From: Eubacteriales bacterium | GTDB lineage: Bacteria > Bacillota > Clostridia > Oscillospirales > CAG-382 | Assembly: GCA_045592105.1 (NCBI GenBank) | Contig: JAZNUB010000045.1 | Location: 260-64,259, forward strand | Length of the DNA stretch: 64,000 bases | Direction: 5' to 3' | Shown here: positions 11,555 through 63,706 of the stretch, one piece after another | Layout: each line of letters opens with the position of its first letter | Numbering within the stretch: the first letter of the stretch is position 1 | Program-made: the position numbers and the translations under genes | Notes under the pieces: model-generated | The model's input: only the letters and a program-made list of their open reading frames with translations | What the model was told of the DNA's origin: nothing | Database searches by the model: none

Positions 11555-12931
11555 ATGGCGGCGTATTTAGCTATTGATATAGGTGCCTCCTCAGGTAGGC
11601 ACGTGCTTGGCAGTGTTGAAAACGGCAAGCTTTGCCTTAAGGAGATATATCGTTTTGAAAACGGATTTGTAAACGTAAACGGCACGCTTTCTTGGGATAC
11701 GGAAAAGCTGTTTGATTGCGTTTTGCAAGGGCTTGAGGCTTGCAAAGCTGTAGGCGTTATCCCCAAAACCGTGGCGATAGACACGTGGGGCGTGGATTAC
11801 GTTTTGCTGGACGAGGGCGGAAACGAGCTGTTTCCCGCCGTTTCTTATCGTGACGGTGCCGCCGCCGAGGCCGCAAAGCAGATGGAGGGCGTTTTAAGCC
11901 CCGCACGGCTTTATGCGAAAACAGGGATACAAAACCAAAGCTTTAACACGGTTTATCAGCTTTATCGTGACAAGCTGAACGGCAAGCTTTCAAAAGCAAA
12001 GCACTTTTTAATGATGCCCGATTATCTTGCGTACAGGCTAACGGGCAGGATGGCAAACGAATACACAAATGCCACTACCACAAGCCTTGTAAACGCCAAC
12101 GGCAGGGAATGGGATGCGGATATAATCGCCGCTTTAGGTCTGCCCAAGGAGCTGTTTTTGCCGCTTTCAGCCCCCACCAAGGTGCTTGGCGGCTTTAGCG
12201 AGGCTGTTAAGCAACGGCTTGGCTTTGATTGTACCGTGGTGCTGTGCCCCACGCACGATACCGCATCTGCCGTTGCCGCGTGCCCGATAGACGGTGGCGG
12301 GGTATATATATCCTCCGGTACCTGGAGCCTTATCGGTACCGAAAACGCAAGCCCCGTGGTAACGGACAAGGCGCGCACTGCCAACTTCACAAACGAGGGC
12401 GGAATAGAGTACAGATACAGGTTTTTGAAAAACATAATGGGTATGTGGCTTTTCCAAAGCGTGCGAAAAGAGCTGAACAATGCCTTAACCTACGACGAAA
12501 TGATGCACCTTGCAATGCAAAGCGACTTTACGGAAACAACAAACCCCAATTTGCCGCAGTACGTTGCACCGCAGAGCATGATAAGCGAGGTGCGTGCCAG
12601 CCTTGGCAAGCCTGAGCTACCGCTTGGGGACGTGCTTAACTGCCTTTACCATTCGCTTGCGCTGTCCTACAAGCAAGCGATAGAGGAGATGGAGGAGATA
12701 AGCGGCAAGAAGATAGAGTATATATTTATAGTTGGCGGCGGCAGCAAGGATGCGTATCTAAACACGCTTACCGCACGTTACACGGGTAAGCGCGTATACA
12801 CGGGGCTTACGGAAGCTACCGCAACGGGAAATATATTGGCACAGCTTATGGCGGATAAGAAAATAAGCCTTAAAGAGGCAAGGGGAATAGTTTCACACTC
12901 GTTTGAGATAAAGGAGTTTAAGGGGATATGA
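11555..12931 (+). CDS. rhaB: Rhamnulokinase
   Basis: 458 aa of the FGGY kinase family. The N-terminus (LAIDIGASSGRH) and overall similarity fit RhaB, and it is followed by rhaA and rhaD. Confidence 0.92.
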   Translation: MAAYLAIDIGASSGRHVLGSVENGKLCLKEIYRFENGFVNVNGTLSWDTEKLFDCVLQGLEACKAVGVIPKTVAIDTWGVDYVLLDEGGNELFPAVSYRDGAAAEAAKQMEGVLSPARLYAKTGIQNQSFNTVYQLYRDKLNGKLSKAKHFLMMPDYLAYRLTGRMANEYTNATTTSLVNANGREWDADIIAALGLPKELFLPLSAPTKVLGGFSEAVKQRLGFDCTVVLCPTHDTASAVAACPIDGGGVYISSGTWSLIGTENASPVVTDKARTANFTNEGGIEYRYRFLKNIMGMWLFQSVRKELNNALTYDEMMHLAMQSDFTETTNPNLPQYVAPQSMISEVRASLGKPELPLGDVLNCLYHSLALSYKQAIEEMEEISGKKIEYIFIVGGGSKDAYLNTLTARYTGKRVYTGLTEATATGNILAQLMADKKISLKEARGIVSHSFEIKEFKGI

Positions 12932-24690: not shown

Positions 24691-25872
24691 GTGATGAGTG
24701 TATTCAGAAAAACCATTGTTTTGCTTCTTTCGCTTGTTTTTATTGCATCAACTTTTTGCATAAGCGGTAATGCGGTAGAGCCAACAGAACCTATTTTTAC
24801 ATACGATAATAGCATTGTAGCAATGGTTACGGTAGATACGGAGAGAAGCTTTGTGCCTGACGACTTTCCTGAAATTGATTGCAACGCGGTATATGTGGTA
24901 AGCAAGCTAAAAACTGACACATGGTACGATTACGAGCTTGTATTAACTCTTGATGGTAATGTGAACAATGCGTTGTCTGCTGTTTGCGCTAATTCTATGG
25001 TTAGTTTAGCAAAACGCAATTCTTATGCGCTTGAAGCTTCTGTTGTTGAGTTAAGCAAGAGTGAACTCGTTTTGCCTATCGGAAAAAGCGCTGAGTTGGA
25101 AATAGCTAAGTTTATTGACGTTGTAGCTCGCAATATTGTTGGCGTTGCGTTTGAAATAGACAGCGAGGTTATTGCTGATGATAGCATACAAAGCGGATGC
25201 TTTGATGACTATGGTATAAAAAACTTTTGGTCTGCCGCTAATTCAAGAATTGATGATAGTTTTGAATGTTTAAAAGACAGCAATAATTCTTTTTCTTGGG
25301 CAGATGAGGGACAAGTTAGCACCAACGGCTTGTATTTTGGTATATTTAATAATGAATTGGGCGACGTGTACAACATCGTTGATGTAATTGAGTGCGTAAA
25401 CAAGCTTGCAAGCTTGAGAGGCATAAACTCTGTGGTGCTTTGCGATGATACATTTCCCAGTGGTAATCCATGGGAGGAAGTATGGAAAATTAGTGACAGT
25501 AATGTTGCCTCAATAAGCCTATCCGGCGGAACATCTGCGGATATAAATCAGGGTATAGCAACCGATATAGGGCAAACCGCAACTGTTACAGGGCTTTCTG
25601 CGGGCAGCACCACCTTAAGCTTTGAAAGAAGCGGTTTTGGCGCTTACGGATGTGCTATTTGTTCAATTATCGTGGTTTCACCTGCCGATGTAAATGGTGA
25701 CGGCGTGGCTGACAATACCGATGCCGCTGTGATTTTGCGTTATGACGCGGGCGCTATCGACCTTACGGACGTGCAGCTTAAGGCAGGCGACGTTAACGGT
25801 GACGGCGAGGTTGATAATCTTGATGCGGCAAAAATATTGCAGTACGATGCAGGCATTATAGATAGCCTTTAA
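24691..25872 (+). CDS. Secreted dockerin-containing protein of unknown function (Big_2-like segment plus C-terminal dockerin)
   Basis: An AGGAGG RBS precedes a GTG/ATG start at 24691/24694, followed by a signal peptide. The body looks AT-rich by eye. The C-terminal dockerin is nearly identical to that of the upstream gene. Confidence 0.8.
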   Translation: MMSVFRKTIVLLLSLVFIASTFCISGNAVEPTEPIFTYDNSIVAMVTVDTERSFVPDDFPEIDCNAVYVVSKLKTDTWYDYELVLTLDGNVNNALSAVCANSMVSLAKRNSYALEASVVELSKSELVLPIGKSAELEIAKFIDVVARNIVGVAFEIDSEVIADDSIQSGCFDDYGIKNFWSAANSRIDDSFECLKDSNNSFSWADEGQVSTNGLYFGIFNNELGDVYNIVDVIECVNKLASLRGINSVVLCDDTFPSGNPWEEVWKISDSNVASISLSGGTSADINQGIATDIGQTATVTGLSAGSTTLSFERSGFGAYGCAICSIIVVSPADVNGDGVADNTDAAVILRYDAGAIDLTDVQLKAGDVNGDGEVDNLDAAKILQYDAGIIDSL

Positions 25873-26977: not shown

Positions 26978-29251
26978 ATGATATTTGATGGCGCAAAATG
27001 GATAAGCAACGGCGTAAGAGAATACGTTGGCACCGTTGAGGGTGTGCGTGCTAACCCCGCACCGTATTTTCGCAAGGATTTTACCGTGGATAAAGGGCTT
27101 GTTAAAGCAACGCTTTACGCAACTGCAAAGGGCGTTTACGAGGCGTATGTGAACGATACCTTCGCGGGGGACGAGCTTTTTACACCCGGCTTTACCAACT
27201 ATAACAAGCTGATACTGTTTCAGGAATATGACGTTACGGAGAAGCTGCACAAGGGCAAAAACACTTTCGGCGCGGTAGTGTCGGAGGGGTGGTATGCAGG
27301 GCACATTGCGTTTCAGAAGCGGCAGTATTTCGGCGCTTGGCCCGTTTGCCTGCTTATGAAGCTTGTGCTTGAATACAAGAACGGCCGCATAGAAGAAATA
27401 GTTACGGACAGCAGCTTTAAAACCACCACGGGCAGAATACTTGCCAGCAGTATACTTGACGGCGAGGTTGTTGATAACCGCCTGCCCGAAAGCTATGAGA
27501 TGTTTTCCTCCGGTATGAACGTGGACGAGTGGGACAATGCCACCGAGGAGGGAAGTGACTTTTCGTTGCTTGCCCCGCAGGAGGAGGAGCCTGTTCGTTT
27601 CTGCCACCGTTTAAAGGGTGTGTGCATCGGGCACGATAGGGGTGATATCTACGATTTCGGTCAGAACGCGGCAGGCGTTTTGTACCTTAACGTTAAGGCT
27701 GATGAGGACACTAAGATTACGCTTCGCCACGCCGAGATGATGGATGGTGACAAGCTTTATACCGCAAACCTGCGCCTTGCAAGGTGTGAGGACGTTTTCT
27801 ATTGCCGCGGCGGCAGGCAGATACTAACGCCCACCTTTACCTTCCACGGCTTCCGCTATGCCGAGGTTATAGTGGAGGGCGGCGATGCAAAGGTTACGGA
27901 TATATTCTTTAACGTTTGTCATAACGACCTTACGCGTACCGGTGAATTTGATTGTTCAAGCGAGCTTATCAATAAAATATATACCAACACGCTATGGAGC
28001 CAGCGCAGTAACTTCCTTTCCGTGCCTACGGATTGCCCGCAAAGGGATGAACGCCTTGGTTGGACGGGGGATGCACAGATATTCTGTGTTAGCGCAATGT
28101 ATAACGCGGATTGCAAGCGTTTCTTGGCGCGCTATCTGCGTGATATAAGGCTTGACCAGCGCGATAACGGTGCAGTAACCGACATAGCGCCCGACCTTTT
28201 GGGGCTTACGGGTGAGGGAACGGCCGCTTGGGGTGATGCGGTTTGCGTTATCCCCTATAACCACTACGTTATGTACGGCGACCTTACCATACTTGAGGAC
28301 AATATAGAGGCTATGAAAAAGTGGGTTGAGTATCTGCGTACCCACAGCACTAATCTTATAAGACCTGCCGAGGGGTACGGAGATTGGCTTTCCGTATACG
28401 AGGAAACGGATAAGAGCGTGCTTGCCACCGCGTATTTTGCATACAGCACCTTGCTAACCGCAAAAAGCCTTGACTATTTGGGTGAGGACAGCGAGTATTA
28501 TTACGAACTGTACGAGCAGGTTAAGCAAGCGTTTAACGCGGAGTTTGTGGACGAACAGGGGATGATAAGAAGCGATACGCAAACCTGCTATCTGCTGGCT
28601 TTAAACTTTGGGCTTTGTGACGATAGGGAAGGCTGCTTTGCACACCTGCTTCGCACGCTTGAAAGGCGCGATAACCACCTTACCACGGGCTTTGTGGGCG
28701 TTAGCCTGCTGTTGCCCACGCTTTGCGAGTTTGGGCGCGAGGATTTGGCGTATGCGCTTATCCTTTCTACTGACTATCCTTCCTGGGGCTTCTCCGTTAA
28801 AAACGGTGCCACCACGATATGGGAGCGTTGGAACAGCTACACGCCCGAAAACGGCTTTGGCGACGTTGGTATGAACTCCTTTAACCACTATTCCTTGGGC
28901 TCCTGCGTACAATGGATGTATTCGTATATGCTTGGTATCAAGCCCGATGAAAGCGCGCCGGGCTTTGAAAAGCTTATAATCAAGCCTGTTACAGACCCCT
29001 TGCATAGGGTAACAAACGCTTGCGGCCACTACGATAGCGAGTGCGGCAGGATAGACGTTGATTGGACGGACGAAAACGGTATAGTAACGCTTAACGTATA
29101 CAAGCCTGCGGATATGAGCGTTAACGTTGATATCAAGGGCGATATCGTTTCCGTTGCGGTAGACGGTGAAGCCGCAACGCTTTCTATGGTAGCGGGTGCA
29201 GAGGAAATAACCATAAAATACAGACCGCAACACGGAGGTATAGAGCTATGA
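26978..29251 (+). CDS. Alpha-L-rhamnosidase (GH78)
   Basis: 757 aa with an N-terminal APYFRKDF motif and the catalytic-domain motif DCPQRDERLGWTGD typical of GH78. Confidence 0.9.
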   Translation: MIFDGAKWISNGVREYVGTVEGVRANPAPYFRKDFTVDKGLVKATLYATAKGVYEAYVNDTFAGDELFTPGFTNYNKLILFQEYDVTEKLHKGKNTFGAVVSEGWYAGHIAFQKRQYFGAWPVCLLMKLVLEYKNGRIEEIVTDSSFKTTTGRILASSILDGEVVDNRLPESYEMFSSGMNVDEWDNATEEGSDFSLLAPQEEEPVRFCHRLKGVCIGHDRGDIYDFGQNAAGVLYLNVKADEDTKITLRHAEMMDGDKLYTANLRLARCEDVFYCRGGRQILTPTFTFHGFRYAEVIVEGGDAKVTDIFFNVCHNDLTRTGEFDCSSELINKIYTNTLWSQRSNFLSVPTDCPQRDERLGWTGDAQIFCVSAMYNADCKRFLARYLRDIRLDQRDNGAVTDIAPDLLGLTGEGTAAWGDAVCVIPYNHYVMYGDLTILEDNIEAMKKWVEYLRTHSTNLIRPAEGYGDWLSVYEETDKSVLATAYFAYSTLLTAKSLDYLGEDSEYYYELYEQVKQAFNAEFVDEQGMIRSDTQTCYLLALNFGLCDDREGCFAHLLRTLERRDNHLTTGFVGVSLLLPTLCEFGREDLAYALILSTDYPSWGFSVKNGATTIWERWNSYTPENGFGDVGMNSFNHYSLGSCVQWMYSYMLGIKPDESAPGFEKLIIKPVTDPLHRVTNACGHYDSECGRIDVDWTDENGIVTLNVYKPADMSVNVDIKGDIVSVAVDGEAATLSMVAGAEEITIKYRPQHGGIEL

Positions 29252-57347: not shown

Positions 57348-57802
57348 CGCTACGCAAGAAAAAAACAATAAAGATTTGCCTTGCCGTATTAGGCTTAGCT
57401 GTTTGGTTGCGGTTTATATTTAGAAATTCGCTTAAAAACAGCGTACAGTCTGCCAACCAAAGCGAGGCGGCAGAAGGCTTTTTGCGCCGCATATTAAGCT
57501 CGTTAGGCTTTAGCGGCAACGCGGAGGCAGTTGCAGAAATAGCCGTAAGAAAGGCGGCGCATATATTTGAGTTTTTCGTTTTGTTTTTGCTGTTGGCGGC
57601 GCTTTTTGCCCTGCTTATCAAAAGCATAAACGTAACGGTGATATGCTCTTCGGCTTTGGCGTTCGGTTTCGCTTGCATAGACGAGTGCTTGCAGATTATT
57701 TCGCACCGCGGCGCATCAGTACGGGACGTGCTTATTGATTCGGTAGGTATAGCCATAGGCGCATTGCTTTATGTTTTCGTGCGTAAAAAACGAAATAGAT
57801 AG
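57344..57802 (+). CDS. VanZ family membrane protein
   Basis: 152 aa with 4 TM helices and the motif KAAHIFEFFVL. It overlaps recN by 4 nt. Confidence 0.85.
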   Translation: MTLRKKKTIKICLAVLGLAVWLRFIFRNSLKNSVQSANQSEAAEGFLRRILSSLGFSGNAEAVAEIAVRKAAHIFEFFVLFLLLAALFALLIKSINVTVICSSALAFGFACIDECLQIISHRGASVRDVLIDSVGIAIGALLYVFVRKKRNR

Positions 57803-57808
57803 AATTAT

Positions 57809-57842
57809 GGGCTGTATCAAATCATTCGATTTGATACAGCCC
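57809..57842. repeat. Third copy of the TGTATCAAATC palindromic unit (15-bp stem), placed after vanZ
   Basis: gggctgtatcaaatc attc gatttgatacagccc. There is no adjacent T-run on either strand. Confidence 0.85.
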
Positions 57843-57848
57843 ATTTGC

Positions 57849-58029
57849 TTGGGGATAGGAAAAAATGGTTGGAACGGGCGAACTGAACTGAAGCTGTACC
57901 GATAGTACTGCAAAGTGAAGTTCGTTCGTAGCAAGAAAATATATTATAAAAGGCTAATCGTGGCTTTCGCCACGATTAGCTTCCATTATGTAATATATAT
58001 TTTTCCTTGCGATCCAGCCGGTTTTTACA
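57849..58029. repeat. Left arm (IR-L) of an imperfect inverted repeat bracketing the VTC operon
   Basis: By eye it aligns in three conserved blocks with the reverse complement of 61431-61579. It carries an extra insert of about 33 nt in the loop of the first hairpin. Confidence 0.85.
57946..57980 (-). terminator. Intrinsic terminator of the VTC/DUF4956/beta-helix operon (lies inside IR-L)
   Basis: gctaatcgtggc tttc gccacgattagc forms a 12-bp perfect stem. On the minus strand it is followed by CCTTTTAT. Confidence 0.75.
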
Positions 58030-58041
58030 GCCTCATTTGAT

Positions 58042-59922
58042 TTAATTAGTGCTTCCGCCTTGAAAGATGTTTGCCTTCATAGTAACATTCATAATAAGCT
58101 CGCCGCCTGTGCAGGTGGTGTTTTGTGCAAAACCAAAGCTATCAAGCCCGTTGGCGTTGCCGCCAGCCATAAGCGTGTAGCTACCGCCCTTCTTTATGGA
58201 GGGCGCGGATATTACCGCAGAGGAATACGCCTTATCGGGGCTTATAGCAACTATTGCGTTCCCCTCACTATCGCGGAGCGTAAGCAGGGTGTTTGCTGCT
58301 TGAGTTTTGAACTTGCAAAACGCCGTGCCCTGGCTTGGGGAGTTAGAGAAGCCCTGTGCCATAGGCGCGCTTCCAAGTGCAACAACCACGCCGCCGTTGA
58401 TAACAGAACTGCCTGCACAGTCCAATGAGCTGTCTAAATCAGAGGTGGGGCCGCTTATCACCATAACGCCGCCGCGCACTTGTAGAGTGCCGTTAGAGTC
58501 TATACCGTCACCATCGGCGTCTATGTAAAGCGTACCGCCTGTAAGTGTGAACGCGTTTACCGTCATAATACCATCGTCCGAGGCATTTACGGTAACCGCA
58601 CCGCCGGACATTATCACGCGGGATGCATCCATACCCTCAAAGCTGTTTTCAACTGTTATAGTGCCGCCGCTTACGGCAAGGTCGCTGTTAGCGTGGAAGG
58701 CATCGTTGCCGCTGGATAGCGTTAGCGTGCCGCCCGTTATGCTTATAGTGCCGTTGGAATGTATACAGTCATCTCTGGAGCTTATGTTGTAGCTACCGCC
58801 CGATATAAGGATATCGGATACCGCTTTAAGCCCTTTGTAAGACTCTGCCGTTTCGGTGCCAAGCGCAACGCTTCCGCCACCGCCGCTTTTAACGGTTATG
58901 CTTGCAACGTCGGATTTAAGTACGGTTTCCGCCTGTATACCGTCGTGAACAGCCGTTACGTTGATAGCGCCGCCTTCTATGTAAATGTAGCCCTTGGCGG
59001 CGTTTTCTGTGTTGTCGGAGGTGATACCGTCATCACCGCTGTTGATGGTTATAGCACCGTTTTTGATTTTAACGTAGTCCTTGCCGTTTAGCGCTATGCC
59101 TTTAGAGCTTATGTTAAGCGTACATTCGGAAACAACAACCCTGTCTTTAGAAACAACGCCGTGCTGTTTGTTGCCCTTAACGGTAAGCTTGCCCGTGCCG
59201 TTTATCGTCATATCCGCAAGGCTGAAAATAGCCGCATCCACGTTTGTTGTGCCGCTTGTAAGCGTGTATGAGTTACCGTCGCTTACGTAGTTTTCCGTGC
59301 CGTCGAATGCTGTTATAGTAACCTTGTCAGCCTCTTTAACAACTATAGCGGGGCCGTTTGCGTTGTTTATCACAACGCCCTTTAAAACAAGCTGAACCTT
59401 TTCGGTAGCCGCAACCTCAACAATTATCATGCGGTTTGTAAAAGCACCCTTAAGCTCGTGCGTGCCTGCCGTTGTTATATATATGTCCTCGGCAGGGGCA
59501 GGCGGAACCTCTTCGCTGCTATCCTCTGCCACGGAGCTATCCTCAGGCTCGGAAGGGGTATCTGCCACGGAGCTGTCCTCGGGCTTGGAGGGGATATCTG
59601 CAACGGAGCTGTCTGTATCGGAATAGCTGCTGTCCTCATAGGAAGCATCGCTTTCCTCGCTAATCGCTTCGCTTATATCCTCGCTGCTTTCATCCTCGGA
59701 GGGAAATGCGGAAATAGGGTCCCCCTGTATTACGCTAACCACGTCGCTTTCATCGTAGGAAGCGGCGATATCGCCATCGTCAAACGAAAAGTCCATCCCA
59801 ACGGTAGGCGCGGTGGATACGTCCGTATCAGAAAGCTCGTCTTTAAAGAAGATAAGTATAACGCTAAGAAGTACTGCAACTGCCACAACGCCCGCAATGG
59901 TGATAATTGTGGATTTCCTCAC
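58042..59922 (-). CDS. Membrane-anchored surface protein with an acidic repeat linker and a Cthe_2159-like (PF14262-like) parallel beta-helix carbohydrate/polyanion-binding region
   Basis: 626 aa. The GTG start overlaps the upstream stop (GTGA) and has an AGGAGG RBS. It has an N-terminal TM anchor and SSVAD(I/T)PS(K/E)PED repeats. Periodic segments follow, such as INGTGKLTV, INSGDDGITSD, ITGGTLTLSSGNDAFHA, VSGGTITV and LTGGTLYIDADGDGIDSNG. Confidence 0.75.
   Translation of the reverse strand: MRKSTIITIAGVVAVAVLLSVILIFFKDELSDTDVSTAPTVGMDFSFDDGDIAASYDESDVVSVIQGDPISAFPSEDESSEDISEAISEESDASYEDSSYSDTDSSVADIPSKPEDSSVADTPSEPEDSSVAEDSSEEVPPAPAEDIYITTAGTHELKGAFTNRMIIVEVAATEKVQLVLKGVVINNANGPAIVVKEADKVTITAFDGTENYVSDGNSYTLTSGTTNVDAAIFSLADMTINGTGKLTVKGNKQHGVVSKDRVVVSECTLNISSKGIALNGKDYVKIKNGAITINSGDDGITSDNTENAAKGYIYIEGGAINVTAVHDGIQAETVLKSDVASITVKSGGGGSVALGTETAESYKGLKAVSDILISGGSYNISSRDDCIHSNGTISITGGTLTLSSGNDAFHANSDLAVSGGTITVENSFEGMDASRVIMSGGAVTVNASDDGIMTVNAFTLTGGTLYIDADGDGIDSNGTLQVRGGVMVISGPTSDLDSSLDCAGSSVINGGVVVALGSAPMAQGFSNSPSQGTAFCKFKTQAANTLLTLRDSEGNAIVAISPDKAYSSAVISAPSIKKGGSYTLMAGGNANGLDSFGFAQNTTCTGGELIMNVTMKANIFQGGSTN
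59526..59615 (-). repeat. In-frame 36-nt tandem repeat (about 2.5 copies) in the acidic linker of the beta-helix protein
   Basis: On the plus strand, ctgccacggagctatcctcaggctcggaaggggtat / ctgccacggagctgtcctcgggcttggaggggatat / ctgcaacggagctgtc... Confidence 0.85.
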
Positions 59923-60602
59923 AGCTCGTCTCCTCCTTCAAGTATCTCGGAAATAACTATTTCAAGGTTGCCGTTGCGGCATCTGAGCTCATCAATAAAC
60001 TCCTGCATCTTGCTTTCGTCCTTAAGCTCTATCTTATAAAACAGCTTGTAAAGGCTACCCATATTGGTGGTTTTTGCTTTAACAAGCCAATGCTTTCGCG
60101 TGTATCTTTCAAACAAATCGTCAAACCCGTTTGCAAAACGAAGCGATTCGGGAACGGTTATGTGTAGCTCTACCATAGCTTGATCGCGCATGGGAACAAA
60201 GGTAAGCAAGGTCATAATAGCACCAACCACCAAGGTGAACAGCAACGCCAGCAAGCCGTAGCCCGCGCCGCAAACCAAGCCCGCCGTCATAGCAAGGAAT
60301 ATAGCGGCTATGTCCTTTGCCTTGCCGGGAACGGAACGGAAACGCACAAGCGAAAACGCGCCCGTTATTGCAACGCCAACGCCCACGTTGTCGCTAACCA
60401 TCATAATAACCGTTTGCACTACCATAGGAAGCAGTACAAGCGACATTGCAAAGCTTTTAGAGGTTCTTGAACGTATAGAGGATGCAACCGCCGCAAGGAT
60501 ACCACAGCCAAGCGCAAAAAGCAAACCTATAAAATATACCTTTAATGAAAAGTTGTTAAGCAAATTAGTGCTTTCGATAAATGATTTACTAAGACCTAGC
60601 AT
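59919..60602 (-). CDS. DUF4956-like integral membrane protein (4 TM helices plus a soluble C-terminal domain)
   Basis: 227 aa with a SLVRFRS motif between helices. It overlaps the VTC gene by 14 nt. Confidence 0.75.
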   Translation of the reverse strand: MLGLSKSFIESTNLLNNFSLKVYFIGLLFALGCGILAAVASSIRSRTSKSFAMSLVLLPMVVQTVIMMVSDNVGVGVAITGAFSLVRFRSVPGKAKDIAAIFLAMTAGLVCGAGYGLLALLFTLVVGAIMTLLTFVPMRDQAMVELHITVPESLRFANGFDDLFERYTRKHWLVKAKTTNMGSLYKLFYKIELKDESKMQEFIDELRCRNGNLEIVISEILEGGDEL

Positions 60603-61332
60603 AACTTAGTTCTCCTTTTATATATTGTGTTGGTGTTTTACCCATCAGTATTTGGTACGCCGTGCCGCATTTTGAAAAAGAGGAGGGAAGTATACCGCAT
60701 TCGGTAAGCGCGCTTGACAGCCACAACGGCATTGCCCCATCCGTTTTTATTTCCAAAAGCAGCTCGTTGTCCTTTATTAGCTTTTTGCCGTCATCACCGT
60801 ACTGCAAAAGCAGGTTGTCCCCACGGTATCTAACGTTGCTGTCAAAGGTTATACGCAGGCTTGGTATATCCTCTGCATAGAACGCTTCACGCTCGTAGGC
60901 AATGTATATGGAGGGCGTAGGATGCTCATAAAACTTCATAGAATAGTCTATCTCACGCATTATCTGCGATTCCTCCGGGCGCACCCCGTTTTCCAAATAG
61001 TCCATAGCCTGCTTTAAGGTCATGGCTATACGGCGTTTGTAAACAACGCCCTTGTATTTCTTTTTTAGCTCCAAAAACACCTTTGTGTTTTCCTTGGGAA
61101 CGCCATAGCTTCTAAGGCGTATCTTCTCTTTGTACGATATCGCCTCGATAGAATTGCGTATAAGCCTGTAATTCGGCGTGTCAAGGTAGATACTGCATAT
61201 AGTGCTTTTGCCGTATTCATCAGGCTTAAGGTATTTTCCAACTATCGCAAGAAGTGCTTCTTTCTGCTGTGTTGTTATACGGTATTTCTTTTCTATGCGC
61301 TTAAAAATACAGATATCGCTCAAATAAAGCAC
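60589..61332 (-). CDS. VTC-domain (triphosphate-tunnel, polyphosphate-polymerase-like) protein
   Basis: 247 aa with the motifs RIEKKY, KIRLRSYG, ELKKKYKGVVYKRR, LLEIKTDG and SKCGTAY, as in CYTH/VTC tunnel enzymes. The start is either GTG at 61332 or, more likely given the GGGGGG RBS spacing, TTG at 61323. Confidence 0.78.
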   Translation of the reverse strand: MLYLSDICIFKRIEKKYRITTQQKEALLAIVGKYLKPDEYGKSTICSIYLDTPNYRLIRNSIEAISYKEKIRLRSYGVPKENTKVFLELKKKYKGVVYKRRIAMTLKQAMDYLENGVRPEESQIMREIDYSMKFYEHPTPSIYIAYEREAFYAEDIPSLRITFDSNVRYRGDNLLLQYGDDGKKLIKDNELLLEIKTDGAMPLWLSSALTECGILPSSFSKCGTAYQILMGKTPTQYIKGELSYARS

Positions 61333-61366
61333 CCCCCTATGCCAGTTTTTTTCTTTTAACGGCTAA

Positions 61367-61375
61367 AGTATAACA
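61367..61375 (-). promoter_or_regulatory. Candidate extended -10 promoter element of the VTC operon
   Basis: The minus strand reads TGTTATACT about 35 nt upstream of the start. The -35 is poor (ATGTAC). Confidence 0.35.
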
Positions 61376-61430
61376 GCCAAACATTAATAGTACATAAAGA
61401 AACACAAAAAAAGCGAAAAATTTTTGGGGA

Positions 61431-61584: not shown

Positions 61585-61617
61585 GTGCTGTAAAAAAACC
61601 GTGTTTTTTTACAGCAC
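61585..61617. terminator. Palindromic terminator after the GT39-like gene
   Basis: gtgctgtaaaaaaa ccgtg tttttttacagcac. On the minus strand it is followed by TTTTG. Confidence 0.8.
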
Positions 61618-61624
61618 CCAAAAA

Positions 61625-63706
61625 TTATGCTATATAGCTAATAGAGTAAAATACAATAGATGAAAAGCTGAACAGCACCGTTGCGGTAACTAAAACCGCT
61701 TTAACGGGCTTAACCCATTTTTGTGTGCCGTTTACCAAAAGCCCCGACCAAACCGCGCCTATAAGCAGCGTTGGTACTATATATCTAAAGTCCATAGTGC
61801 AGGTATGCGGATATTTAAAGCAGAAGGAAACGTAGCTACCAACCAAAAACGCATAGTAAACGACAAGGAAAATGAAGGGTATAATATTTTCCTTGCTTAT
61901 AACGCTGCCCTCGTCGTTCGCCTTTAGGGATGAGCGCACACCCATAAACAAGCCGATAAGGCTTATTGCAATAAGCACCAAGGCGGAGAAAACAAGCACG
62001 TATCCAAAGAAGTTTTGCGTTGTGGAAACGTTTTTTAAGTTAAAGTATTCCCCAAACAAAGAGGTTTTTACAATGTACGGTGCTATGCCGTAATCGTAAA
62101 ACTTTTCCCCTGCAACGGCACCGTTTGCCGCAGTTGCGCCAACGTTGGGGTACATATTAGACAGATGCCACGAGCCAATGCCCGTAAGCCTTTCCAAAAA
62201 CGAGTACTTGCCCAAATACATATCGCTGTTTTGTGAAAGCGAGGGAACGTATCCCAGGGGCATATCGTATTTGATGAAGCAACGGATAGGCCACCAAAGC
62301 CCCAAGGGGAAGCAAATTGCCGCAAACAAAGCGAACTTTTTCCAAAGCGTTTTAAGGTTGTTAATAAAGCCGCCCGTTTTTGTTGTAAACAGCGAGTATA
62401 GGAAAACGTAGCCCGTGCCAAACGCAATCATTGCGCCTGAAAGCTTTGTCATCATCCCAAGCCCTATCGTTAAGGCAAGGATAACTGTGTTTTTAACGCT
62501 ACGCTTTTTGTACCAACGCACCGTGTATAGCACGGAAAGGAACAAAAACAGCGTTGTTAGCGGGTCGTTATTAACGCTGCCCGCGAAGATGTAGAAGCTG
62601 GGGTGGAACGCAAGCACGGCAAACGCCGTATATAGCGCAACGCCTTTAAGCTTAAACTCACAAAACAGCTTGTAGCCAACAGCCATCATAGTTGCGGAGA
62701 ACGCCATTGTAAGATACTGCACGTTTTCATAAGCTTGATAAACGGTTAATCCGCAAGCGGTTTGCGCCCTCATCCACAAAGCCGCCAAAAAGTGATGAAG
62801 CGGGGGGTGGTAGTATTGCGAAAGACCAGCGTTATATACTTTTTCAGTAGGCAACGCCCAGTTGTTGTAGATGTGCATTATATAGGTGTTATGCCTTGGA
62901 TGTTCGCTAAACAGGTTGAAAACGTCGTGCTGGTTTTCGGGCAGGGTGATATCCAAAACGTACAAAAAACGCATAACAAGCCCTAAGCCAAACATCAGCA
63001 TTATAACGGGGGATATAGCCTTCTTCTCCCTCAAGGCGGAAGCAAAGCTAAGCCCAAAGCAAAGAACAAAGCCCGTTACAAGCAGCCTTTCCTTCGGAGC
63101 TTCGATAAGCACAAAACAAAGGTATGCGGCAACGGTGGTAAGCAAAAGCGTGCCTACCGTGCAGGCGGTTTTGATAATGCCGTTTTCGTTTTCGGTGTAT
63201 ATGTGAAGGCAGTACAAAACCAACGCAAAGGTTAACAGCACAACCCCAACGCCAAACACCGCGCAAATACCCAGCGCCGCCGCAAGCGCAAGAATACTTG
63301 CACTTTTATTTTTCTTTATGATAAAAAACGCAAAAAGTGCAAACAACGATAGTGCTATCACCAGCAAAGCTATCCTTTGCGGTGTGCCGCTTAACGCCAT
63401 TATCAGGCGGAAGGCAAGAAACGCCGCACCGCAAGTACCCAATACGTAAACCACGCGTATAACCACGTTGGTTTCTATGGCTTTAATAAACGCGCTTAAA
63501 GCGTACGCCAGCAACGCAAAAAGCACAAACACCGGTATCTGCCATATAAAGCCGTATTCACCGCTTATACCGTCCCTTGCGGAGCGTGCAACCTGATGCA
63601 TTTGTGTAAAAAACAGAGAGAAGGTACACAAAAGCATCGTTGCCACGCAGGGATGCTTTTCTATAAAGCTTTCTAAGCTAAAGCTTTTTACTGCTTTGGT
63701 TATCAT
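61625..63706 (-). CDS. GT-C fold glycosyltransferase (family 39 / ArnT-PMT_2-like), polytopic membrane protein
   Basis: 693 aa with more than 12 hydrophobic helices. It has a YYHPPLHHFL loop motif of the ArnT/PMT_2 type and a long C-terminal membrane region. Confidence 0.75.
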   Translation of the reverse strand: MITKAVKSFSLESFIEKHPCVATMLLCTFSLFFTQMHQVARSARDGISGEYGFIWQIPVFVLFALLAYALSAFIKAIETNVVIRVVYVLGTCGAAFLAFRLIMALSGTPQRIALLVIALSLFALFAFFIIKKNKSASILALAAALGICAVFGVGVVLLTFALVLYCLHIYTENENGIIKTACTVGTLLLTTVAAYLCFVLIEAPKERLLVTGFVLCFGLSFASALREKKAISPVIMLMFGLGLVMRFLYVLDITLPENQHDVFNLFSEHPRHNTYIMHIYNNWALPTEKVYNAGLSQYYHPPLHHFLAALWMRAQTACGLTVYQAYENVQYLTMAFSATMMAVGYKLFCEFKLKGVALYTAFAVLAFHPSFYIFAGSVNNDPLTTLFLFLSVLYTVRWYKKRSVKNTVILALTIGLGMMTKLSGAMIAFGTGYVFLYSLFTTKTGGFINNLKTLWKKFALFAAICFPLGLWWPIRCFIKYDMPLGYVPSLSQNSDMYLGKYSFLERLTGIGSWHLSNMYPNVGATAANGAVAGEKFYDYGIAPYIVKTSLFGEYFNLKNVSTTQNFFGYVLVFSALVLIAISLIGLFMGVRSSLKANDEGSVISKENIIPFIFLVVYYAFLVGSYVSFCFKYPHTCTMDFRYIVPTLLIGAVWSGLLVNGTQKWVKPVKAVLVTATVLFSFSSIVFYSISYIA

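Follow-up and report, generated by a model that had tools for sequence, protein, structure and literature searches.

The minus strand of a 64-kb window of contig JAZNUB010000045.1 (the window being the whole stretch of DNA that was analysed, with all coordinates given as window positions) carries a three-gene operon made up of a VTC-domain gene (gene 1, 60589-61332), a DUF4956 gene (gene 2, 59919-60602) and a Cthe_2159-family gene (gene 3, 58042-59922), and the sequence and predicted structure of the first product make it likely that this protein polymerises polyphosphate (polyP). Together the three products may constitute a split bacterial polyP machine of the Vtc4 type, situated at the cytoplasmic membrane and provided with a means of export, a reading of the whole operon that we put forward tentatively. 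What is new here is that a Vtc4-type catalytic domain occurs in a split bacterial arrangement, beside a membrane protein of another kind and a surface protein that can be exchanged. An earlier note on this DNA had described three coupled genes, and this is borne out by the open reading frames, since genes 1 and 2 overlap by 14 nucleotides (nt; 60589-60602) and genes 2 and 3 by the 4 nt GTGA (59919-59922); the start/stop overlaps are furthermore kept in close relatives. The products are a soluble single-domain triphosphate-tunnel protein of 247 amino acids (aa) as listed, a membrane protein of 227 aa and a surface-anchored beta-helix protein of 626 aa, and all three match their Pfam models above the gathering score, whereas no NCBIfam model matches any of them.

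Gene 1 matches the Pfam VTC family (PF09359) with 139.2 bits against a cut-off of 23 (E = 2e-40), and the motifs RIEKKY, RLRSYG, KKKYKG..YKRR, EIKTDG and SKCG, to which the earlier note had drawn attention, are all present and fall on the positions that do not vary within the family. In the PDB, gene 1 used as a single sequence or as a profile gave weak partial matches to Vtc3 and Vtc4, which covered only the middle of Vtc4, and a PDB search with the C-terminal 62 aa returned noise only. Profile-to-profile alignment (hhalign) of the gene 1 family with fungal Vtc4 fragments, however, gave a probability of 96.7% (E = 4.6e-10) over 217 columns, the residue numbering being verified on one Vtc4 fragment in which Y359, R361, E426, S457 and K458 fall at their published numbers. 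In yeast, mutation of nine Vtc4 residues, K200, R264, R266, K281, Y359, R361, E426, S457 and K458, lowers polyP (bioRxiv 10.1101/2023.01.27.525886). Every one of the nine is retained in gene 1, where they correspond to K16, R72, R74, K90, Y146, R148, E194, S220 and K221, respectively, and among 32 bacterial homologues eight of the positions are invariant and Y146 is conserved in at least 90%, so that the expected conservation of the tunnel Lys, Arg and Glu residues was indeed found. The position of K458 is taken by I or L in the inactive Vtc2 and Vtc3 but by K221 in gene 1, which is therefore of the catalytic type.

The structural comparison points in the same direction. An AlphaFold2 (AF2) model of gene 1 (predicted local distance difference test score, pLDDT, 88.6) was compared with the PDB by Foldseek, and ranks 1-13 are occupied by Vtc4, Vtc3 and Vtc2 (best E = 6.9e-15, TMq 0.68-0.69), with the Escherichia coli triphosphatase ygiF and class IV adenylate cyclases next at E = 3e-8 or worse. 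These next matches, and the fact that triphosphate-binding residues are common to the tunnel superfamily, make it conceivable that gene 1 is a triphosphatase, a nucleotide cyclase or an enzyme that transfers phosphoryl groups to an acceptor other than phosphate, in which case the operon would modify or signal to the envelope without polyP. It should also be mentioned that our literature search found no biochemical study or activity assay of any bacterial VTC-domain protein, a point that counts in favour of such an alternative and against a polymerase, and in this respect the earlier note's view of the trio as uncharacterised holds. We nonetheless consider an activity other than polymerisation unlikely, since the Pfam VTC profile is matched from end to end (positions 1-234 of 235), since the E-values of Vtc4, Vtc3 and Vtc2 are better by six orders of magnitude or more than those of the remaining tunnel enzymes, and since the lysine (K458) and serine (S457) specific to Vtc4 show no variation. 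Gene 1 is by no means an isolated case, as the matches listed in one search include at least 7,600 bacterial proteins that have a VTC domain and whose catalytic residues are intact.

The closest known system is the yeast VTC complex (Vtc4 with Vtc1, Vtc2 and Vtc3; PDB 3G3Q, 7YTJ and 8I6V), which shares with gene 1 the tunnel fold and the nine catalytic residues including the polymerase-specific lysine, and which likewise has a membrane component. The yeast Vtc4 does however also contain an SPX domain and a three-helix transmembrane domain, whereas gene 1 is a separate 244-aa protein (with the start codon given further below) in which a Pfam scan and a sequence profile revealed neither an SPX domain nor a hydrophobic segment. 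Furthermore, the yeast channel is a pentamer of three-helix DUF202 domains, while the operon partner is an unrelated MgtC-like protein with five transmembrane helices and an ACT domain, and the target of the yeast complex is the vacuole, whereas that of the bacterial operon would be the cell exterior.

That gene 1 works together with gene 2 is suggested by their distribution. We classified neighbourhoods by hidden Markov model (HMM) searches of all stop-to-stop frames in 80 species-representative genome loci, all of them from Clostridia and mostly from ruminant or other animal gut, and DUF4956 was found directly downstream of VTC for 76 of the 77 VTC genes that could be judged. A scan of metagenome contigs for DUF4956, with a query alignment of 20 sequences, gave the reciprocal result, since 62 of 63 judgeable DUF4956 genes have VTC directly upstream. 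The pairing is thus nearly obligate, and it extends to distant taxa: plasmid and phage records, which came without annotation and whose open reading frames were classified in this analysis, include the Enterococcus faecalis plasmid LR962858.1 (L091, 6980-10642), where VTC-DUF4956 is followed by a two-component system (OmpR-type regulator and histidine kinase), and in Acetoanaerobium noterae (L089, 4735-10048) a two-component system of the same composition precedes the pair and a cardiolipin-synthase-like phospholipase D gene comes after it. The plasmid location suggests that the pair is mobile, and the two-component neighbours, together with the histidine kinases that are the commonest upstream neighbours in Clostridia, may mean that it is regulated by an envelope or phosphate signal. 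Because of these counts, the distant taxa and the conserved overlaps, gene 1 would probably act in complex with gene 2, as judged from synteny.

The third gene is less constant. Among 71 judgeable genome pairs 52 are immediately followed by a Cthe_2159 gene, 2 have one directly upstream, 1 has one next to it on the opposite strand, and 16 have none; for 52 judgeable metagenome pairs the corresponding numbers are 36 directly downstream, 6 elsewhere in the locus and 10 absent. Cthe_2159 is thus an optional, exchangeable third gene that is present in about three quarters of the Clostridia clade, and the notion of the trio as a fixed unit has to be modified accordingly, since about one quarter of the pairs lack it, stand-alone Cthe_2159 genes exist, and pairs adjoining CotH are described in the literature. 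The loci L005 and L007 illustrate the point, since they are flanked by the same genes (Peptidase_M32 to the one side, adh_short, epimerase and Fe-ADH to the other) but one contains the pair alone and the other the full trio, which indicates recent gain or loss of the Cthe_2159 gene. The full trio VTC-DUF4956-Cthe_2159 is also found in Paenibacillus. A linked CotH-like kinase, which the earlier note had proposed to look for, was on the other hand not seen among the 48 upstream and 16 downstream neighbours of the related Clostridia loci.

Gene 2 matches Pfam DUF4956 (PF16316) with 42.4 bits against a cut-off of 30.6 (E = 7.8e-11, aa 43-134), and a HMMER scan of this family gave 3,269 cluster representatives at E up to 0.001. 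The AF2 model, built with 113 diverse sequences (pLDDT 90.1, predicted template modelling score, pTM, 0.80), has five transmembrane helices at aa 20-42, 49-68, 72-87, 95-112 and 116-135 (the whole region being aa 20-135, nt 60198-60545), and not four as had been stated before, followed by an ACT/ferredoxin-like domain of the order beta-alpha-beta-beta-alpha-beta at aa 143-219 (nt 59946-60176). The soluble C-terminal domain and the SLVRFRS motif of the earlier description therefore stand, and among the 113 diverse homologues R89 of this motif is invariant while R87, F88 and S90 are kept in at least 90% (RFRS, aa 87-90, nt 60333-60344). A topology with the N-terminus outside and the C-terminus inside, which would make the RFRS motif and the C-terminal domain cytoplasmic, fits the model, since the basic residues are concentrated in loops 1 and 3 and behind helix 5.

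The architecture of gene 2 is reminiscent of the MgtC/SapB proteins (Salmonella MgtC; Mycobacterium tuberculosis C-domain, PDB 2LQJ), which likewise combine five transmembrane helices with a cytoplasmic ACT-like domain and with which it has a link to phosphate and ATP physiology in common. All Foldseek matches of the gene 2 model are confined to the C-terminal domain and consist of ACT, PII, ribosomal S6, CutA and the MgtC C-domain 2lqj, the last with TMt 0.59 and a weak E of 0.05. Against the Pfam MgtC models (PF02308 and PF21770) gene 2 reaches 7.6 bits, which is below the cut-off of 31.4, and weak sub-threshold matches occur in four of seven homologues, the best family member scoring 20.5 bits. 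An hhalign comparison of the gene 2 family with Salmonella MgtC, a single sequence that passes Pfam MgtC at 1.4e-40, gave a probability of 76.5% (E = 2.2e-5) over 131 co-linear columns, and the same MgtC-family assignment in CDD is reported for the DUF4956 homologue of Streptococcus intermedius (bioRxiv 10.1101/2024.04.20.589940). Gene 2 would accordingly seem to be a distant relative of MgtC with five membrane helices and an ACT-like domain, although it differs from the MgtC proteins in falling below the Pfam threshold, in having its own motif GAFSLVRFRS and in being obligately paired with VTC, which MgtC is not known to be.

The mechanism that we propose consists of four steps. In the first, the basic tunnel of the gene 1 beta-barrel would take up a nucleoside triphosphate together with Mn2+, and the enzyme would move the gamma-phosphate onto a growing polyP chain in the manner of Vtc4. 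In the second, genes 1 and 2 would form a complex in which the cytoplasmic RFRS cluster and the ACT-like domain dock or regulate the polymerase, and in the third the chain, or its phosphoryl groups, would be passed outward through an oligomer of gene 2. In the fourth, the acidic beta-helix of gene 3 would meet the product outside, either by way of bridging Ca2+ or Mg2+ or by acting on it, a contact that we infer only weakly. Gene 3 would in this scheme be an exchangeable accessory, related pairs adjoining secreted CotH kinases or having no third gene at all. Provided that the first step is right, outward transfer through gene 2 would have an even chance or slightly less. The outward direction is argued for by the third partners being extracytoplasmic, namely the anchored Cthe_2159 protein here and, in S. 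intermedius, a CotH-like kinase that is secreted, and furthermore by the embedding of the pair in loci for the secreted polysaccharide Pel, by the coupling of synthesis to membrane transit in eukaryotes, and by the almost constant presence of the membrane partner.

There are, however, a number of findings that weigh against export by this route. No pore is evident in gene 2, where the basic residues that hardly vary are R87 and R89, both on the cytoplasmic face, and none is found inside the predicted helices. Foldseek gave no whole-protein match and found no VTC chain, and comparison with DUF202/Vtc1 profiles gave no match at E up to 10. Gene 2 is thus not homologous to the VTC channel, and translocation through DUF4956, as the earlier note had it, is conjectural, there being no sequence or fold similarity to the channel helices of Vtc1 or Vtc4. 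In addition, MgtC proteins are known for regulating and binding other membrane proteins and act on F-ATPase and PhoR, and ACT domains typically sense ligands, while deletion of the homologues in S. intermedius left Pel production and aggregation unchanged, with polyP unmeasured, and the authors of that study suggest that polyP may remain cytoplasmic (bioRxiv 10.1101/2024.04.20.589940).

These observations are what would be expected if polyP stays in the cytoplasm and gene 2 only tethers gene 1 and controls it allosterically through its ACT-like domain, in the manner of MgtC, with gene 3 binding an external ligand such as a plant polysaccharide and either signalling through its transmembrane helix to gene 2 or merely being co-regulated. 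Bacterial polyP is normally cytoplasmic, and such an arrangement agrees with the MgtC-like architecture and distant profile match of gene 2, with the two-component systems beside some pairs, with the binding of cellulose and polygalacturonate by the founding Cthe_2159 protein, and with the dockerin protein and rhamnosidase cluster of the host. It does however leave unexplained why an enzyme of the cytoplasm should be translationally coupled with an extracellular protein in roughly 75% of the clade, and elsewhere with secreted kinases. A CotH kinase that is secreted would be an odd sensor, and gene 3 has only about four cytoplasmic residues with which to signal, so that we regard retention in the cytoplasm as rather unlikely.

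The properties of gene 3 bear mostly on the last step of the export mechanism. The protein matches Pfam Cthe_2159 (PF14262) with 284 bits (E = 1.1e-84), and aa 144-349 match the founding structure PDB 4peu (E = 2.5e-23). Its anchor, acidic linker, 12-aa repeats and beta-helix were all correctly recognised before: a single hydrophobic helix, preceded by R and K, occupies aa 5-26 (nt 59845-59910), an acidic Ser/Asp/Glu/Pro linker of 113 aa with a net charge of -33 occupies aa 31-143 (nt 59494-59832), and the beta-helix, with a net charge of -17 and an isoelectric point (pI) of 4.66, occupies aa 144-626 (nt 58045-59493). Tandem Repeats Finder places a repeat of 36 nt in 2.5 copies with 88% match at 59525-59613, which encodes the linker repeats SSVAD(I/T)PS(K/E)PED. 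Since the only hydrophobic helix is N-terminal and follows R and K, the remainder of the protein would be extracellular, and an N-terminal anchor is found in 50 of 52 operon-linked orthologues, the Cthe_2159 protein of the Paenibacillus trio having a lipoprotein-like signal. The founding protein of the family, Cthe_2159 of Clostridium thermocellum (PDB 4PEU), is likewise an extracellular, acidic beta-helix, and differs from gene 3 in that the latter is about twice as long, has an N-terminal membrane helix and an acidic repeat linker, and belongs to an operon with a VTC pair.

The acidity of gene 3 is conserved, the 52 operon-linked orthologues having a beta-helix median net charge of -31 and a median pI of 4.25, with 51 of the 52 below pI 6. 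Stand-alone Cthe_2159 genes without a VTC pair are found in Chondrinema and Acetoanaerobium, and as the Chondrinema protein is equally acidic, with no sign of adaptation to a polyanion, the acidity is a trait of the family and Cthe_2159 is not dedicated to the operon. This argues against simple electrostatic capture of polyP, and the proposed surface module for binding of polyanions is, in other words, so strongly and conservatively acidic that it would make a poor direct trap; as far as contact between gene 3 and polyP is concerned, cation-bridged binding alone stays plausible. The literal form of the earlier model, in which DUF4956 is the counterpart of the VTC channel and the beta-helix traps polyP directly, shares with our mechanism the evidence of operon context and may moreover appeal to the founding member (bioRxiv 10.1101/401869), since polygalacturonate is itself an acidic polymer. 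We nevertheless hold it to be improbable, since the channel homology is missing, since both linker and beta-helix carry net negative charge, and since Cthe_2159 is absent from a good number of pairs and is the only difference between closely related loci with the same flanks. For the proposal of synthesis, export and surface capture as a whole, the call of a polymerase is therefore strong, export is plausible from its context, and capture is weak.

Pairs of this kind have been noticed before, and the VTC-DUF4956 pairing as such, annotated and mentioned in passing, is not new. In the pel operons of Gram-positive bacteria CotH, a "polyphosphate polymerase", DUF4956 and DUF4832 occur as accessory genes (Whitfield et al., bioRxiv 10.1101/768473), and NELoc-2 of Clostridium perfringens contains two VTC genes, each followed by a membrane protein of 222-226 aa that we take to be DUF4956, as well as CotH (PMC2879425). 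In S. intermedius, SIR_1592-1594 encode a cytoplasmic VTC-like polymerase, an MgtC-family transmembrane and ACT protein and a secreted CotH-like kinase (bioRxiv 10.1101/2024.04.20.589940). These loci resemble the present one in that VTC and DUF4956 are adjacent and accompanied by an extracytoplasmic protein, but the partner there is a CotH kinase and here a Cthe_2159 beta-helix, and neither pel or other exopolysaccharide genes nor CotH were found in the flanks of our operon, the 64-kb window as a whole not having been scanned exhaustively. A description of the Cthe_2159 variant of the locus was not found in the literature. Reviews of polyP confine VTC-type synthesis to eukaryotes, where it is coupled to membrane transit (bioRxiv 10.1101/2023.01.27.525886), and bacterial synthesis to PPK1 and PPK2.

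The PPK enzymes share with gene 1 only the predicted product, polyP made from nucleoside triphosphate, their folds and mechanisms being unrelated, and we know of no dedicated integral-membrane or surface partner of a PPK. An active gene 1 would mean that gut Firmicutes possess a source of polyP that has gone unnoticed, and if the pair exports the polymer, the way in which polyP comes to lie outside bacterial cells would become open to molecular study, no bacterial polyP exporter having been identified to our knowledge. DUF4956 and one branch of the MgtC superfamily would at the same time receive a function. The generalisation that VTC-DUF4956 is a widespread bacterial polyP synthase-exporter, a third route beside PPK1 and PPK2 that delivers polyP to the outer face for use by extracytoplasmic partners, appears rather doubtful to us, but it would have specific consequences: Cthe_2159 beta-helices would use polyP through bridging cations in gut Clostridia, secreted CotH kinases would use it, possibly as a phosphoryl or energy donor where ATP is absent, and near Pel loci, Pel being a positively charged polysaccharide, polyP could serve as counter-ion. 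The system is compact, with two or three small genes, and is thus directly testable by heterologous expression.

The operon forms a transcription unit of its own, since hairpins end both the PMT_2 gene upstream of it and gene 3. The first of these, strong and with a T-tract, read from the sequence as GTGCTGTAAAAAAAC / GTTTTTTTACAGCAC followed by TTTTGTT, lies at 61585-61617 on the minus strand, and the second, a terminator-like hairpin with a 12-bp stem containing 7 G-C pairs, at 57953-57980 on the same strand, about 60 nt past the gene 3 stop. A promoter was less readily located. While the terminator of the earlier note could be confirmed, a scan for the generic sigma-70 consensus called no promoter in the 290-nt leader, site counts not being above those of shuffles, and a candidate emerged only from a block at 61367-61398 (minus strand) that is conserved with the leader of a relative of 89% identity (L001) and contains a possible extended -10 element TGtTATACT at 61367-61375 (TG at 61374-61375, TATACT at 61367-61372). 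Comparison of the leader with Rfam gave no credible match to a leader RNA or riboswitch, the single match being the terminator hairpin with 31.9 bits against a gathering score of 114. The length of gene 1 needs a slight revision, since the reading frame is 247 aa as listed but the true start is probably TTG 61323, which gives 244 aa; this codon (61321-61323) lies 8 nt after the Shine-Dalgarno sequence GGGGGG (61332-61337, minus strand) and matches the MSDICIF start of homologues.

A conserved fourth gene was considered and rejected, the upstream flanks being heterogeneous with HisKA (5 of 48) and WYL (3 of 48) as the commonest neighbours. A WYL/WCX regulator of about 323-328 aa stands directly upstream of the trio in L003 and L004, where it is confirmed by Pfam; Pfam likewise confirms it for three genes of the set of upstream neighbours, that of L009 among them, and the upstream gene of about 323-328 aa in L014, L021 and L025 is assigned to WYL/WCX from the size of its open reading frame alone. 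Four apparent VTC+DUF4956 fusion proteins (P0389, P0471, P0442 and P0379) were set aside, as both halves are truncated and they are probably deletions or misassemblies. A further VTC-DUF4956 pair, with 44% identity to gene 1, occurs on the 53-kb contig MT835527.1 (L092, 5188-6616), an UNVERIFIED Bacteriophage sp. record from human faeces.

The window represents ordinary chromosomal sequence from an uncultured Clostridium that degrades fibre, and it carries PBP1, DnaE, LeuRS, DXS, RecN, a rhamnosidase cluster and a dockerin protein. The operon stands by itself amid housekeeping genes; its neighbours, both here and in a syntenic relative, are PMT_2, amino oxidase and GtrA at one end and VanZ, RecN, ArgR and NAD kinase at the other end. 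The dockerin protein, of 393 aa with a C-terminal type I dockerin, is encoded at 24691-25872 on the plus strand in the patch of lowest GC (40.5% against about 50%), which suggests a cellulosome-bearing host and possibly acquired DNA. An FGGY sugar kinase (11555-12931) and a family-78 alpha-L-rhamnosidase (26978-29251) are likewise found on the plus strand. Pectic rhamnogalacturonan is thus probably among the substrates that the host breaks down, a point that bears on gene 3 because the founding Cthe_2159 protein binds a pectic polymer. Between the VanZ gene, which ends at 57802 on the plus strand, and the gene 3 terminator there is a 17-bp perfect hairpin (57807-57844) that is likely to be the VanZ terminator, so that each of the two convergent genes would have its own hairpin. 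Directly upstream of the operon, at 61625-63706 on the minus strand, lies a multi-pass PMT_2 (GT39/ArnT-like) glycosyltransferase of 693 aa, which was rejected as a member of the operon, since a terminator stands between them and the glycosyltransferase gene is conserved in the closest relative only. In that relative (L001, 3733-7858) PMT_2 follows GtrA-like and amino-oxidase genes, and the group looks like a surface-glycosylation module.

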